Shown: in pieces, positions 4,025-12,963 of the stretch | How the letters are laid out: every line of letters starts with the position of its first letter | How positions within the stretch are numbered: position 1 is the first letter of the stretch | Source of the DNA: Candidatus Hermodarchaeum yapensis | GTDB lineage: Archaea > Asgardarchaeota > Hermodarchaeia > Hermodarchaeales > Hermodarchaeaceae | Length of the DNA stretch: 13,552 bases | Direction: 5' to 3' | Assembly: GCA_016840405.1 (NCBI GenBank) | Contig: JAEOSK010000049.1 | Span: forward strand, 1 to 13,552 | Program-made: the position numbers and the translations under genes | Notes under the pieces: model-generated | What the model saw: the letters and a program-made list of their open reading frames with translations, nothing else | What the model was told of the DNA's origin: nothing | Databases searched by the model: none

Positions 4025-5758
4025 GTGTGTGTACCTGTGAAGACTAGAGCCTTATTCTTGTTACTGATACTCTGCGTTCCAATGGTTTTTGCATTTATAC
4101 CACCTACTAATGCAAATTCTTCTCATTTGGTTATTGCTGATATCCAGCGTAATGTCGATTTCCAGGAATATGGTTTGCTTCTCGTAACTGATAACGTCAC
4201 CGCTGTTAACTCGGGTCCCGTGCCCGTGTTCTTTGTAGAAATTGCTTATCCTATTTCTGAATTTGACAAGGTTAAGATGTTTAATGCTGTAACAGAAGAT
4301 GGAACAGACCAATTGTGGGAAAGGATCACCCGACTTGGTCCAGACTGCACAGGGTGGCGAGTATATCTTCCGGAACCAGTAATGCCAAATCAAACGGTTA
4401 TATTTAAAACCCAGATGGCCTTGGCTGGATTAACTACACAGGATTCGATTAATGCTGCTGCTACCTTTTCGCCTATACCAACCAGTCCCTATCTCATTCA
4501 AAGCTACACCACAACATTAACGTATCACCTTGCGTTAACTGCACCCTCTCAAAGAGAGTGGACAGGAATAGACGTTCAGCCCTATTCCTTTGAATATTCC
4601 ACGGTTGTTCTCGATCATATCGTAAACGATTACAGACCGCTCATTACGTACTTAGAGCTTAAACGCACATTTTCTATTGATGCGTGGGGCTACATATATG
4701 CCCATGAAGAACACACCTTCCGCTTGGACAGCCCCAATCCTCGGTTTGATAACGTAGACCGATTATGGAGAAGTATAGAGATAGCATTACCTCCGGGGAG
4801 CGAATTTCTTAGGACCTATGATAGTTTAACCAACTTATCAAGAAGTCAAATAACTGAACCAACAAATGCAACTCACCCGGGAACACTAAGCGTTGTTCTC
4901 GGTTATTTTCTCGAAGAAGGTGACGTTTACCAATTTTTTGTTGAATACAGAATTCCCCTTGACTTCCATCAATTCGTCCTTCAAACAGGTCAGTTTTTCA
5001 ATTTCAATCCCTATTTCGAGGAACCTTGGCTAATTGAAAAACAGATTACTGAGTTTATTCTTCCTCCTGGCAGTTGGCTGCAAGCAATTCCGGTTGGATC
5101 AGATGTTTCAATTTCTTCGATTGGGCAATATATGATTAGTTACCATGGCGTAAATGTTACATCATTGCATAGAGCCGAGATAAACTTCAATTACATTTAT
5201 CCAATCCCACCCATCCTCGCTCGACCAATGGTGTTATTCATCCTTATTGTTATCATCTCTTTGATGTATGTTGTTGTACGACGTATTCCTTATTTCCGTG
5301 AAGAAGAGGAAGATGTTGTGATTGTAAGAGATGTAGATCCGGTCATTCTTGGGGAATTTTGTAATTTGTACGGAGAAAAAATTGCCTTGTTACTTCAAAC
5401 AGAAAGGCTTGAACAAAGTATGTTACAAGGTAAAATCTCCAAGCCTAGATATCGAAAGGAAAAGAAGAATTTTGAACGTAAGATTCGAACGCTTAACGGT
5501 GAATTAGCTAGTAGAAGTCAACAATTAATCGAGGCAGGAGGTAAGTACGAGTCGAGTCGTAACCAACTGGAACTATTAGAAGCTGAACGAATCAGCGCCA
5601 TTGAGGCACTCCATGCCCTCGAACAAAGATACCGTCAAAAGCGAATTACTGCCCAAGTTTATCAGAAGCTACAGAAAGACCTTCAAAAACGTCGAGATAG
5701 AGCAGTATCACGTATGGATCGAATCCTACTCGGTCTTCGCGAAGAATTAAACGAGTAG
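4025..5758 (+). CDS. Ribophorin I (OST1/RPN1)-like oligosaccharyltransferase subunit
   Basis: Signal peptide, then a beta-rich ectodomain with LKRTFSIDAWGYIYAHEEH (compare the RPN1 R.I.VSHWG.I.VEE motif) and LPPGSEFLRTYDSLTNLS (compare LP......YRD.IGNIS). One TM helix (PMVLFILIVIISLMYVVV) and a helical/coiled-coil cytosolic tail follow. The exact start is uncertain. Confidence 0.78.
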   Translation: MCVPVKTRALFLLLILCVPMVFAFIPPTNANSSHLVIADIQRNVDFQEYGLLLVTDNVTAVNSGPVPVFFVEIAYPISEFDKVKMFNAVTEDGTDQLWERITRLGPDCTGWRVYLPEPVMPNQTVIFKTQMALAGLTTQDSINAAATFSPIPTSPYLIQSYTTTLTYHLALTAPSQREWTGIDVQPYSFEYSTVVLDHIVNDYRPLITYLELKRTFSIDAWGYIYAHEEHTFRLDSPNPRFDNVDRLWRSIEIALPPGSEFLRTYDSLTNLSRSQITEPTNATHPGTLSVVLGYFLEEGDVYQFFVEYRIPLDFHQFVLQTGQFFNFNPYFEEPWLIEKQITEFILPPGSWLQAIPVGSDVSISSIGQYMISYHGVNVTSLHRAEINFNYIYPIPPILARPMVLFILIVIISLMYVVVRRIPYFREEEEDVVIVRDVDPVILGEFCNLYGEKIALLLQTERLEQSMLQGKISKPRYRKEKKNFERKIRTLNGELASRSQQLIEAGGKYESSRNQLELLEAERISAIEALHALEQRYRQKRITAQVYQKLQKDLQKRRDRAVSRMDRILLGLREELNE

Positions 5759-5838
5759 ACATCTGTTTACAACGCCGAAACACTCAATAAGTCCCAACGA
5801 AAAGGGTTTCGCGTTAGGATAGTAGCCCGGTAGTGTAG

Positions 5839-5873
5839 ACACCTTCAGAGTAGTTTCCTTTGAGTTTGCACAA
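5839..5873 (+). other. Putative non-canonical D-loop intron of tRNA-Gln (~35 nt, boundaries +/-2 nt)
   Basis: Extra sequence separates GTGTAG from GGTCAATCAT. Exon GTGT pairs with intron GCAC (5868-5871), and there is an internal hairpin at 5844-5850/5858-5864. Confidence 0.7.
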
Positions 5874-5896
5874 GGGTCAATCATCCGGGGCTTTGG

Positions 5897-5922
5897 TGCT
5901 GTAATCATAAAACAGCGAAGAT
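5897..5922 (+). other. Canonical 37/38 intron of tRNA-Gln (26 nt)
   Basis: Full bulge-helix-bulge: helix CTTT/GAAG, bulges GG^T and AT^A, inner stem GCTGT/ACAGC. Confidence 0.92.
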
Positions 5923-5960
5923 ACCCCGGGACCGCGGTTCGAATCCGCGCCGGGCTACCA

Positions 5961-5971
5961 TTTTATTTTTT
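5961..5971 (+). terminator. Oligo-T tract directly after tRNA-Gln
   Basis: TTTTATTTTTT immediately follows the CCA and overlaps the last codons of the convergent gene. Confidence 0.5.
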
Positions 5972-6802
5972 CTTAGACATTAGGGACGGATGCCAATGTG
6001 TTGTTTTTGCCTTTTCTGTTTGAGTATCCCATTCTGCAAGGATTTTTACGGCTTCACAAGCTGTCTTACTAGCTTCTTCTTCGCCTGCAATAGCAAATTC
6101 ATCAGTTTCGCGATTTGCAAATACGGTGCAAACCGCACCACTTCTAAGTCCGAAAAGGTTTGATAAAGTGAATATTGTTGAGCATTCCATTTCGAAATTT
6201 AGTACTCTGGCAGCCTGTAAATCAGGGAGGATATTCTTCATTGAAGACTGCCAATAGTTGTTGAACCCTGGTCGCCCCTGTCCAGTGTAGAAACTGTCTG
6301 TGCTACAAGTAATCCCTACATGGTATCGATAACCTAGATTTTCAGCAGCTTCGACCAAGGCCTGTACGACTTGATAATGGGCAACAGCAGGATATCGTGG
6401 TGTTACGTACTGTATACTAGTACCATCGTTTCGGACAGCGCCAGTTGAAATGATCAAGTCACCACATTGGATCTCTTTTTGGATTGCCCCTGAACTCCCT
6501 ACACGGATGAAAGTTTTCGCTCCAATTGTGGCTAGTTCTTCAATAGCAATAGCAGTGGCAGGGCACCCAATCCCGGTTGAGGTCGTTGATATTTGTGTGT
6601 TCTTATAGATGCCAGTGTAGGTTACGTAGCTTCGTTTGCGTGCCATGTTTTTTGAAGAATCCCATAGTTTTGATATTAAAGTAGCACGATCAGGATCACC
6701 CGGTAACAGTACTGTCGATGCAATATCTCCGGGTCGTAATCCGACATGATACTGCATTTGATCAGCCGTTTCAGGTCGGCTTGCTGATTCCCATTTTTTC
6801 AT
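5963..6802 (-). CDS. udp: Uridine phosphorylase (PNP/UDP family 1)
   Basis: Motifs QYHVGL, LLPGDPDR, STGIGCPATAIAIEEL, FIRVGSSG, DSFYTGQGR and NFEMECS. An SD-like GAGGGTGGAGG lies upstream. Confidence 0.92.
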   Translation of the reverse strand: MKKWESASRPETADQMQYHVGLRPGDIASTVLLPGDPDRATLISKLWDSSKNMARKRSYVTYTGIYKNTQISTTSTGIGCPATAIAIEELATIGAKTFIRVGSSGAIQKEIQCGDLIISTGAVRNDGTSIQYVTPRYPAVAHYQVVQALVEAAENLGYRYHVGITCSTDSFYTGQGRPGFNNYWQSSMKNILPDLQAARVLNFEMECSTIFTLSNLFGLRSGAVCTVFANRETDEFAIAGEEEASKTACEAVKILAEWDTQTEKAKTTHWHPSLMSKKK

Positions 6803-7463: not shown

Positions 7464-8237
7464 CTATCCTATGTAACTAGCGCTTTCTGATTCGTCTCGT
7501 GGTTCTTGTCGTTCCCGTTGTTGTAATAGATGGTATTTCACTTGGTCAAAGATGCCTTTCATTTCTTCGATTTTTTGTTCAAGCTCTGAAACATCAGCTT
7601 TGATATCAAATCGATCATTCAGCACTTCAATTATTAATTTTGATGCGCGTGGATCAAGCCGAAGTAAAGGAACAGTTTCTGCCAGTAGGCAGACGCCTTC
7701 TATCCCATATTTGAGTTTAGCCCAAGCGGGTATCACACCATTAGCCCCGTTTATCACTCCATCTGACATGGGTACAATATAATCTAACTTAGTGAAGAAC
7801 TCTTGAAATTTTGACCCTGTAGATGAAACGAATACCTTAGGAGTTTCCGGATATTCACCGGGAACGTAAGCACCCGTTGCGACGACTTTTGATACATTTA
7901 ATTTTTTGAATGTCTCTGCGATTCGATCGGAGAATTCGTAGATTCCTTGTGATGTGGAGGGCTGAAAGTCGCCTGATACCAGTAAAATGTCTTGTTTCAA
8001 ATCTGAATTTCGATGAAGATAGATTTGACACTCGGGGATTTTCATCATTCCTTCTTCATCTATCATCACATGAGGAGGAAAATCATCAGACAGCACTTGC
8101 AAAATTGGTTCAGCGTTAAGACTCCGAATCAAGACTTCAATCGCAAGTTTCCCTACACTAGCAATGCCTGGCATTCCAACTAGTGCTATTGGATCTTTAA
8201 TATCGGTGACTTTTTTGAGCCAAATGATTTCAATCAT
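7464..8237 (-). CDS. PAC2-family proteasome assembly chaperone
   Basis: Motifs LVGMPGIASVGKLA, DFPPHV, SGDFQP, GVINGANG, CLLAET and DPRAS, with a C-terminal YIG. Confidence 0.9.
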   Translation of the reverse strand: MIEIIWLKKVTDIKDPIALVGMPGIASVGKLAIEVLIRSLNAEPILQVLSDDFPPHVMIDEEGMMKIPECQIYLHRNSDLKQDILLVSGDFQPSTSQGIYEFSDRIAETFKKLNVSKVVATGAYVPGEYPETPKVFVSSTGSKFQEFFTKLDYIVPMSDGVINGANGVIPAWAKLKYGIEGVCLLAETVPLLRLDPRASKLIIEVLNDRFDIKADVSELEQKIEEMKGIFDQVKYHLLQQRERQEPRDESESASYIG

Positions 8238-10888: not shown

Positions 10889-12499
10889 TTATTTCAAATC
10901 AAGTGATGTTGTTAATTTTGTGATTGTATTTTTCAGTGATTTGAGAGAAAAATCTGTGTGAAAAATGGTGAGTTCTTTCTCAAGTTTTTTGAACACACGT
11001 TTACAACGTTGAGAAAAGTTAAACCAATTTTCTGTCGAATCAAAGATTGCATAAAATTTGTGATATTGTCGATTTCGAGTCACGTATTGGCTAATTTGTT
11101 CAATAAGCGGGTTTTGATCTTTGACTAGGTTCATTTTAGGAGGTTCATTTTGGGCAAGTGGGTAGAAATCGGTTAGCTCTAATGGAACGAGCCCGAAGTA
11201 TTGAGAAAGGAAGAGGCTGTCAAAAAGGCTTAGGTTCCGGGAGGAAACCAGTTCAAATTGGATTTTGAAGCGTTGAAACGTTTTTGCGGAATGATACGGT
11301 CGGGTTTTGGGCGCAGAAATGAATAGAAGAGTTTTCCGCTTTGGTTTAGGGGGAGTATAGTTAGTCATGCGAGTTTTGTGTCGGATTATTTCTGGTTGAG
11401 AGAGTGACCATTGACTTGTGATGAAGATGGCTTTTTTCTTGGTAACGGGAGAAAACTTTTCGAATAGTTTATGATATGATGTGAATTTCTTCATGGCGTC
11501 GACTAATGTAGGATGACTGCTTAGTCTACTTTCTACAAGGCGCCAAAGCCGCCCCTCGCGAATGGCTGCTTTGATTCTAATAATCTCTTGTTGGCAGATT
11601 CGGAGATTATGCTCGGCTAAAACTTGAATTCGGTCTTTTTTCTCTAGTTGTTTGATTTCAGAAACAGTGAATTGACTACATGTTGGGCAAAAGCAAAAAT
11701 CATCTTTGATTTCTTCAAGCTTGAAAGTACCCTCAGAAGAAAGAATACGATCATGTTTAGCGAATAGGGCATAAGCTGCTGAATCAAACATATCACAGCC
11801 CATAGCTACGATTAGAGGGAAAATCAGTGGATGTCCCGCGCCGAATAGATGCACTGGTTTATTTGTAGGAATATTACTCTTGGCAGTCAGGACCAAGTCA
11901 ACGAGTTTATCAAATTGATACTGTTCCATTAGTTGAGTGGGACTACCAATAGCAAAAATGGAAAAATCAAGTTTATTGATTTCTTTGGCGCATTTCTCAA
12001 CCAAGTCAGTGAATGTTCCGCCTTGGATGGGACCAACCCAAAGTATGTTGGGTTTTGTTCTGTGATTAATTGAATCTCTCGCACGGCGTATGGTTTCTTC
12101 AACCGTTTCCTGTGCTTCGTTATAGGCGGCGTTTCCCCCTGTAGGAACATCTAAAATTACAGCTATATCGGATTCGATTTTTTCTTGGAACTGGATAATT
12201 TGAAGTGGTGTTGTTTTTACATCACCATAAACAAGAAGTTGATAGGCCCCTGAGTCTGTCATGATTGTGCCAGGGTAGTCTAGGATTTCGTGGATTGATC
12301 CTTCTTGTTCGGTTTTTGAAAGTAAATAGGCATTTGTAATTATCGTTTCACAGTTGAAATCATCAAACATTCTTCGTGGTGGAATGAGAACCCGGGTTGG
12401 GTGTACTACCGGAATAAAGGTTGGTGTTTCAACTATCCCGGTCTTGGTTCGAAATCGTGAGATTCGAGCGAGTAAATCCTTATGGATAATTTCAATCAT
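10889..12499 (-). CDS. tgtA: Archaeosine tRNA-guanine(15) transglycosylase
   Basis: Motifs ETPTFIPV, MTDSGAYQ, GPIQGG, HLFGAGHP and FDSAAY, with the Zn site CFCPTC...EHN. Confidence 0.95.
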   Translation of the reverse strand: MIEIIHKDLLARISRFRTKTGIVETPTFIPVVHPTRVLIPPRRMFDDFNCETIITNAYLLSKTEQEGSIHEILDYPGTIMTDSGAYQLLVYGDVKTTPLQIIQFQEKIESDIAVILDVPTGGNAAYNEAQETVEETIRRARDSINHRTKPNILWVGPIQGGTFTDLVEKCAKEINKLDFSIFAIGSPTQLMEQYQFDKLVDLVLTAKSNIPTNKPVHLFGAGHPLIFPLIVAMGCDMFDSAAYALFAKHDRILSSEGTFKLEEIKDDFCFCPTCSQFTVSEIKQLEKKDRIQVLAEHNLRICQQEIIRIKAAIREGRLWRLVESRLSSHPTLVDAMKKFTSYHKLFEKFSPVTKKKAIFITSQWSLSQPEIIRHKTRMTNYTPPKPKRKTLLFISAPKTRPYHSAKTFQRFKIQFELVSSRNLSLFDSLFLSQYFGLVPLELTDFYPLAQNEPPKMNLVKDQNPLIEQISQYVTRNRQYHKFYAIFDSTENWFNFSQRCKRVFKKLEKELTIFHTDFSLKSLKNTITKLTTSLDLK

Positions 12500-12513: not shown

Positions 12514-12963
12514 TTATGTGGAATCTTCTTCAACTTTTGCCTGCTGCTCTTCTACAAATCGCGTATACACCTTTCTAACTCGATCGGCGAGCGGTCCGGT
12601 TCCTTCTACTCCTTGCTCGGTAACCCTAACTTTATTGAGGACAACAATTACACGTGCATCTTCAAGAAATCTAACCTCACCAGGCGGAAAGAGCGTCTCA
12701 AATTGTTCAGCTAAACCTTTCAAATCAAAAGGATCCTCTGTTTTCACTAGTTCGAGAATTGTGTGACCGGTAATAACAACCCGATGATATAAGGTTCCTT
12801 TTGAATCACGGGCATCAGCTAACACAACACTTAATGTAGCTGGGTCATACCCTCGCATCTTTCCTGTAAGGGTTTTCCCCGTATTTGTACTTACAACAAC
12901 TGTTGCTCCTATCAACGATGCAAGCTCTTTGAAAAAATGTCGAGCCCCTGTACTTTGTGCCAT
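12514..12963 (-). CDS. Sm/Lsm family RNA-binding protein with a C-terminal extension (SmAP3 type)
   Basis: Sm1/Sm2 motifs (GKTLTGKMRGYD...VVLADA...VVITGHTI) plus a ~70-aa C-terminal domain (KVRVTEQGVEGTGPLADRV). SD GGAG lies upstream. Confidence 0.9.
   Translation of the reverse strand: MAQSTGARHFFKELASLIGATVVVSTNTGKTLTGKMRGYDPATLSVVLADARDSKGTLYHRVVITGHTILELVKTEDPFDLKGLAEQFETLFPPGEVRFLEDARVIVVLNKVRVTEQGVEGTGPLADRVRKVYTRFVEEQQAKVEEDST

Follow-up and report, generated by a model that had tools for sequence, protein, structure and literature searches.

Multiple-intron tRNA genes have been surveyed in Thermoproteales, where D-loop sites are reportedly among the positions listed. These genes, which carry up to three introns each, at non-canonical positions and with relaxed BHB motifs (Sugahara 2008; PMC4033280, PMC4090602), are similar to the locus described here but belong to another phylum. 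In Asgard archaea, introns were found in 92-95% of the tRNA genes of three complete genomes, often several to a gene and of a non-canonical kind (Valentin-Alvarado et al. 2024, PMC11291895). According to a preprint (Goswami et al., bioRxiv 10.64898/2026.10.13.758758), about 30% of the intervening sequences of Asgard archaea escape tRNAscan-SE, the D-arm holds half of those that are overlooked, a canonical BHB is present in no more than about one third of the D-arm cases, and introns were gained and lost recurrently at the same positions, splicing having been shown for none of them.

The tRNA-Gln(UUG) gene in the window (the whole stretch of 13,552 nt of DNA that was analysed) is a well-documented instance of this Asgard D-arm intron class in another Asgard lineage. 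Like the hidden D-arm introns of the two Asgard reports, it combines multiple introns, a D-arm insert missed by standard finders, a position with recurrent gain or loss of inserts and a relaxed BHB-like boundary with an alpha/beta EndA. In contrast, both reports centre on Jordiarchaeia, Freyarchaeia and Atabeyarchaeia, and their accessible text names neither Hermodarchaeia nor tRNA-Gln, position 15/16 or archaeosine, whereas here the junction is base-exact by means of insert-free alleles and the same site could be traced through at least five families. With known double-intron pre-tRNAs the gene has in common one strict 37/38 intron next to one relaxed D-loop intron, the L1/CSL-loop enzyme class, and a D-arm whose folding would be blocked until the intron is removed; it differs from them in its site, 15/16, which lies at the loop's 5' edge, immediately 3' of the archaeosine site, and in the absence of a contiguous h' from the window copy. 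Current understanding is unchanged by this tRNA-Gln(UUG) case, which provides a cleanly resolved example of how heavily tRNA genes are interrupted in the archaea closest to eukaryotes; at its D-loop site, at least five Asgard families have introns that are unrelated and keep the geometry alone.

Positions 5824-5960 of the forward strand read as tRNA-Gln(UUG) only once 5839-5873 and 5897-5922 are removed. The acceptor stem consists of AGCCCGG (5824-5830) and CCGGGCT (5950-5956), the latter followed by A73 and an encoded CCA that ends at 5960, and the T-arm (CGCGG-TTCGAAT-CCGCG) sits 5' of the acceptor 3' strand. The anticodon arm (CGGGG-CTTTGG...A-CCCCG) is interrupted by the block of 26 nt, and the 35 bases of the other block stand between GTGTAG (G10-G15) and GGGTCAA-TCAT. 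Deletion of both blocks leaves a 76-nt product that ARAGORN calls as tRNA-Gln(ttg), and deletion of the D-loop block alone results in the call of a tRNA-Gln with a 26-nt anticodon-loop intron, i(39,26); the double-intron tRNA-Gln proposed in an earlier note on this DNA is thus borne out. The features of the locus are the following, all coordinates being those of the window:

4025-5758 (+), 7464-8237 (-) and 12514-12963 (-): genes for eukaryote-type homologues, flanking the tRNA gene
5782..5791 (+): candidate promoter element, an A/T-rich box, ACTCAATAAG, about 33-42 nt upstream of the mature 5' end
5824..5838 (+): exon 1, with the acceptor 5' strand, U8, A9, the D-stem 5' strand G10-U13, A14 and G15
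5833..5836 (+): 5' strand of the central helix H, identical with the D-stem 5' strand GUGU, 4/4 pairing with 5868-5871
5839..5873 (+): intron 1, 35 nt, in the D-loop between G15 and N16, non-canonical, relaxed HBh'/BHL-like, placed by insert-free CTG alleles and the register test
5845..5863 (+): intron-internal hairpin (h' equivalent), 6 bp (5845-5850/5858-5863) with a 7-nt loop
5868..5871 (+): 3' strand of the central helix H, GCAC, followed by the 3' bulge A5872 A5873 ^ G5874
5874..5896 (+): exon 2, with G16, the rest of the D-loop (GGUCAA), the D-stem 3' strand UCAU, C26, the anticodon stem 5' strand, and C32 U33 U34 U35 G36 G37
5897..5922 (+): intron 2, 26 nt, canonical 37/38 position, strict hBHBh', from the sequence reading, the MFE fold and ARAGORN i(39,26)
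5923..5960 (+): exon 3, with A38, the anticodon stem 3' strand, a 4-nt variable loop with C48, the T-arm, the acceptor 3' strand, A73 and CCA
5961..5972 (+): T-rich run, TTTTATTTTTTC, adjoining the 3' end of CCA, likely an archaeal transcription stop

T-rich tails like the one at 5961-5972 are also found 3' of the orthologues. The A/T-rich box at 5782-5791 is a possible promoter element, and boxes resembling it, GACTCAAGAAG and GACTAAATAAG, lie at an equal distance upstream of the orthologues and of the CTG paralogues. The eukaryote-type homologues around the tRNA gene comprise ribophorin I (PF04597), a PAC2 proteasome assembly chaperone and an Lsm protein with an Lsm_C domain.

Left unspliced, the gene is neither called by default ARAGORN nor matched by Rfam at the gathering threshold anywhere in the window, and the suspicion that annotation may miss it was thus justified for general finders. 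Among the relatives, insert-free CTG genes score 44 bits in Rfam, and not one of the insert-bearing genes is reported even at E<=1, from which it is evident that the D-loop insert hides the gene; the only detected gene for reading CAA codons is therefore invisible to general tRNA finders. The CTG gene of G010 (L034:203-301), in which the D-loop insert is absent, gave no Rfam tRNA report even at E<=1, three insert-free genes near-identical to it scoring 44 bits, and this miss is probably due to its 37/38 intron sequence. The CUG paralogue of the window's own genome was miscalled by ARAGORN -i as tRNA-Ala(tgc) with a 50-nt intron.

Intron 2 proved to be the textbook 37/38 BHB intron for which it had been taken. 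Its h (5886-5890/5924-5928) is provided by the anticodon stem, H (5891-5894/5917-5920), of 4 bp, is bounded by the 3-nt bulges GG^U (5895-5897) and AU^A (5921-5923), and an intron helix h' (5898-5902/5912-5916) forms the other flank, as in a strict hBHBh' motif. The motif is present in the MFE fold of the precursor, and the first h' pair covaries from G-C to A-U among the orthologues.

The junction of intron 1 could be fixed by comparison. With the 137-nt gene as BLAST query against 60 relatives, the gene was found in 14 of 14 genomes of the genus, each of which has a CTG-anticodon paralogue too, and in the sister genus as well, and every TTG orthologue found is interrupted by an insert that follows GTGTAG. 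In the CTG paralogue the insert is present in most genomes, the window's own among them (24 nt), and is absent from G008, G010 and G013, which belong to the same genus, as well as from three members of the sister genus (g2). These insert-free CTG alleles read GTGT-AGTGGTCAA-TCAT and join at GTGTAG^TGGTCAA, which equals the predicted spliced D-loop; therefore the intervening sequence lies between G15 and N16, with cuts at AG^A and AA^G. Alignment with intron-less tRNA-Gln genes of relatives, the route to the boundaries named in the earlier note, thus settles them to the base, and together with the register test described below it favours the cuts and the helix GTGT/GCAC that the note had read from the window. 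ARAGORN carries no boundary information, since it calls almost any 33-43-nt deletion in the D-arm a tRNA-Gln, and the enumeration of such deletions as a junction test was dropped.

According to the BHB geometry, the exon bases at -6 to -3 of the 5' cut should pair with the intron bases at -6 to -3 of the 3' cut. In the window copy these are GTGT (5833-5836) and GCAC (5868-5871), paired 4/4, with AGA and AAG as bulges. When 29 inserts of both isoacceptors were examined in this register, H paired 4/4 in 22 (GCAC, GCAT, GTAC or ACAC at -6 to -3 from the 3' cut) and 3/4 in the remaining seven (GCAA or ATGA), hence at least 3/4 in all of them, these counts being descriptive and not probabilities because the inserts are related and not independent. 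Moving the junction by 1-3 nt in either direction left 0-1 copies at 4/4, and shuffled introns gave a mean of 1.9 and a maximum of 7 such copies out of 29; similarly, H of at least three pairs together with an abutting h' of at least 3 bp occurs in 17/29 inserts as compared to 0.44 for shuffles. The 29 inserts form several families that are mutually unalignable, and the intron 1 motif, with the same geometry and register in all of them, goes beyond chance. Clustering of the introns by single linkage at 64% identity joined almost all of them in chains, because shuffled pairs reach 68%, and was dropped.

The same counts bear on the question whether a real intron might be cut one base more 3', in a 16/17-type register, using a helix of U11-A14 with UGCA (5867-5870) and leaving a D-loop with two additional bases, AGA-AGGGUCAA. 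In the window A14 can indeed pair with T5867, so that the +1 register is 4/4 as well, and a 5-bp GTGTA/TGCAC helix appears in the free fold of several relatives. However, the +1 register is 4/4 in only one of the 29 inserts, against 22 at register 0, the 9-nt loop AGTGGTCAA of the insert-free alleles of the same genus is reproduced by register 0 only, and in the best-formed copies h' abuts the 3-nt bulge A14-G15-i1 (i1 being the first intron base), which together make the shifted cut decidedly unlikely and argue for the cut at 15/16. For the 'GCAA' subclade, a different register (TGTA/TGCA, or ACGC/ATGC with a 3' bulge of 5 nt) was rejected as well, as it is not conserved and conflicts with h'.

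With respect to the flanks of the central helix, the exon-side helix h has 0 bp in all copies, which places them in class HBh'. Most copies form the relaxed HBh' splice motif, and in the CTG paralogue of the window's genome as well as in L024, L037, L040, L043 and L044 the unconstrained MFE fold of G10 to N16 is this motif itself. The window copy is the poorest of the related inserts in this regard: an abutting h' of at least 2 bp is found in the own-genome CTG paralogue (6 bp) and in 17/29 relatives, and the window copy, its central helix being paired 4/4, has 0 contiguous pairs there. Enforcing the core yields a fold of -6.3 kcal/mol in which a 4x2 internal loop encloses the 5' site and is separated by 2 bp and a 2-nt bulge from the 6-bp hairpin. 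The poor flanking helices and the atypical splice structure that had been remarked upon are therefore real, h being 0 bp and h' being set back from the bulge. Since neither h nor h' has contiguous pairs, a strict classifier would call the window copy 'not BHB-like'; in the light of its relatives it can be classed as a degraded, BHL-like member of an HBh' intron lineage.

In the free fold of the window copy, H is extended to an 8-bp helix (5833-5840/5864-5871, -13.0 kcal/mol), compared to which the BHB conformer is 6.7 kcal/mol less stable and by which the 5' site is buried. The sequestration of the D-stem strand by such a helix, as proposed earlier, holds in so far as the helix exists and recurs in the MFE fold of the whole precursor (-59.3 kcal/mol, z = -5.5), but not as a feature of the gene in general, because L004 and L005 (95% and 93% identical) keep the 4-bp core and lack the extension beyond it, which makes the 8-bp helix peculiar to the window's genome. 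A conserved regulatory role of the helix was rejected on the same grounds, the nearest orthologues being without it. The helix is accompanied by an altered 5' end of intron 1 and by a G at position 16 (window 5874), where the other 33 copies examined have T.

Several lines of comparison suggest that 5824-5960 is a real, working-looking tRNA-Gln gene. Spliced in silico at the inferred junctions, 34 copies give 73 nt each and one cloverleaf, in which all stem substitutions are compensatory (4-69 from C-G to U-A, 7-66 from G-C to U-A, 49-65 from C-G to A-U), as is the anticodon-stem difference between the isoacceptors (string columns 30-42), no stem pair being broken apart from the conserved U13-U22. 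Exon 1 has the same sequence in 14 species of the genus, compensated stem changes aside, and among 15 TTG genes the mean pairwise identity amounts to 98.4% in the exons, 36% in intron 1 and 64% in intron 2. A second tRNA-Gln(UUG) gene was not detected in the assembly, where its 86% completeness leaves room for another, and the prevalence of CAA over CAG (117:43) in the ORFs of the window implies that the UUG isoacceptor is needed. The spliced D-loop and 37/38 junctions had no matches in a metagenome/metatranscriptome collection, in which contigs as short as a tRNA are unlikely, so that the absent matches are no evidence against splicing.

If the 35-nt block were retained instead, the gene would be a decaying pseudogene or encode a tRNA with a giant D-loop, for which the poor splice motif of the window copy, its 5' site buried in a stable helix, and the fact that spliced RNA is unseen could be adduced. 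Such a reading appears very improbable in view of exons that at least 15 species keep unchanged or with compensated substitutions, whereas identity in the insert falls to 36%, of the gene being the sole one detected for tRNA-Gln(UUG) in a genome rich in CAA codons, of L004 and L005, which keep the core without the burying helix, and of the promoter-like box, the encoded CCA and the T-run, all of which are kept. An origin of the insert as an assembly or binning artefact would be in keeping with a fragmented MAG (2.7 Mb, 77 contigs, 44.7% G + C, 86% complete, 4.4% contamination), but collinear 35-nt inserts occupy the same site in the independently assembled MAGs L004, L005 and L051, and dozens of other genomes have an insert at the identical point, so that its probability is negligible. 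Removal of both blocks as introns thus remains the preferred reading.

A broad-specificity endonuclease, as anticipated in the earlier note, appears to be encoded in the genome. It contains two genes of the EndA family (PF01974), located at G000 C14:43386-43946 and C36:10691-11287 (minus strand). One of the two proteins, with 186 aa, aligns gap-free to the Aeropyrum pernix alpha subunit 3P1Z_B (E 2e-46) and keeps the Crenarchaea-specific loop (CSL; GIRKPK as compared to VEKPR, with the lysine aligned) and the Tyr/His/Lys triad. Its paralogue of 198 aa has neither the CSL loop nor the catalytic His, which is replaced by Glu, and when compared with fused endonucleases it maps to their structural half. 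An alpha subunit with the CSL lysine and the triad together with a structural beta subunit is what is predicted for a broad-specificity (alpha-beta)2 EndA, an alpha/beta architecture with CSL that has been reported for Asgard archaea, and CSL-type EndA was shown to cut D-loop HBh' introns and relaxed motifs in vitro (PMC5829648). The ligase RtcB is likewise encoded. Its matches are divided over two frames, one of 427 aa with profile positions 1-365 (G000 C74:10768-11895 (+)) and one of 171 aa with positions 263-426 (C61:3858-4367 (-)), which may represent two copies, a split gene or an interrupted gene.

Taken together with the motif, this makes it very probable that the gene has two protein-spliced introns, intron 1 being cut at G15/N16 by way of the relaxed HBh' motif through alpha/beta EndA and RtcB. 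In this model, GCAC of intron 1 would pair with the D-stem 5' strand G10-U13 to form the 4-bp central helix, so that the cutting bulges would comprise A14-G15-i1 on the 5' side and A-A-G16 on the 3' side. With no exon-side helix the motif would be a relaxed HBh', and in the window copy, where h' is placed behind an internal loop, BHL-like. EndA, with its CSL-lysine alpha subunit, might cut both introns and RtcB would join the exons, and the weak true D-stem (GUGU/UCAU) could form only after the removal of intron 1, as could the pair G15-C48. The degraded motif of the window copy would provide a demanding substrate on which to test the relaxedness of an Asgard endonuclease; we know of no cleavage assay of an Asgard EndA.

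The proposed cut lies directly after the site of archaeosine, G15 (G5838) being the second base of the bulge, immediately 5' of the cut, and its partner C48 corresponding to C5932. The third feature of an archaeosine substrate is likewise present, as a TgtA equivalog is encoded in the window itself, at 10889-12499(-) (TIGR00432, 524 bits with a cut-off of 350), and is the only TGT-family gene of the genome. Its product of 536 aa has no PUA domain, and no ArcS was found above the profile cut-off in the genome; a separate ORF of 164 aa (G000 C11:9639-10097) matches the PUA end of ArcS only and may, together with TgtA, constitute a split-type ArcTGT. The tgtA gene lies 5 kb from tRNA-Gln(UUG), and their linkage, which is kept within the genus at a distance of about 5-6 kb in the relatives L051 and L053, is ordinary synteny.

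ArcTGT reportedly remodels the tRNA, in which it recognises the backbone of both D-arm and acceptor stem (PMC4770233). The H helix that forms on G10-U13 in the precursor leads on to A14-G15 much as a D-stem leads into its loop, and because the helix made by the intron mimics the D-stem in this way, the structure does not force splicing to come first, as the earlier note had supposed it would, and modification may also precede it. It is conceivable, if unlikely, that the intron helix is a stand-in D-stem which presents A14-G15 to TgtA before splicing or blocks it, and that a 15/16 intron would thus impose an obligatory order of modification and splicing on tRNA-Gln (and tRNA-Pro) in several Asgard families. 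If true, this would amount to intron-dependent or intron-gated insertion of preQ0/archaeosine at a new site. A literature search found no papers that join archaeosine with a neighbouring intron. As the cut falls directly after the archaeosine site, the gene offers a simple in-vitro system for the order of modification and splicing.

The site had been thought of as a rare intron position, a view that does not hold within Asgard archaea. A gapped pattern scan of 400 genomes of the phylum for an insert between G15 and N16-GGYCAA of tRNA-Gln revealed it in at least five families, with about 54 genomes among the matches listed: the window's own family (f1), f7 (5/5 genomes, in both genes), one large genus of f9 (34 of 44 listed), two genomes of f25 and one of f28. 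The sequences of these inserts are unrelated across the families, and only the plan recurs, consisting of one base, a hairpin, GCAN, GCGN or ACGC, and two bases. Rarity is also countered by the published class and by the D-arm inserts that are common in the window's genome, where a rough and noisy, ARAGORN-based census, in which the clear cases alone were counted, found D-arm or 5'-region inserts in two tRNA-Pro (at about 15/16-17/17a), three tRNA-Leu, tRNA-Lys(UUU) and tRNA-Phe(GAA). The tRNA-Gln(CUG) gene of the same genome (G000 C14:19899-20024 (+), equal to L033:200-325) has a 24-nt 15/16 intron with a clean HBh' and a 26-nt 37/38 intron.

In the two tRNA-Pro genes (G000 C11:1671-1803 (+) and C24:19079-19211 (-)) the junction is ambiguous between GTCT/GGAC-type and CTAG/CTAG helices, and the one with anticodon UGG has a further insert in the anticodon stem. 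A third insert, of 31 nt, follows GGTCAA (at about 21/22) in two tRNA-Gln(UUG) genes, L015:1423-1578 (-) of G011 and L017:1424-1582 (+) of G016, where it leaves a micro-exon of 7 nt, TGGTCAA; inserts at about 21/22 are found in other families, too (L028, L029 and L030).

Finally, within one and the same genome the TTG and CTG genes can have similar D-loop introns, with an identity of 80% in L008/L036 (G012) and of 68% in L012/L038 (G001) and L011/L042 (G007), 68% being also the maximum reached by shuffled pairs, and an intron type ATTACTCA..GAGTATGCAC is common to both isoacceptor genes. This likeness suggests that introns may have been copied by gene conversion between the near-identical TTG and CTG genes.
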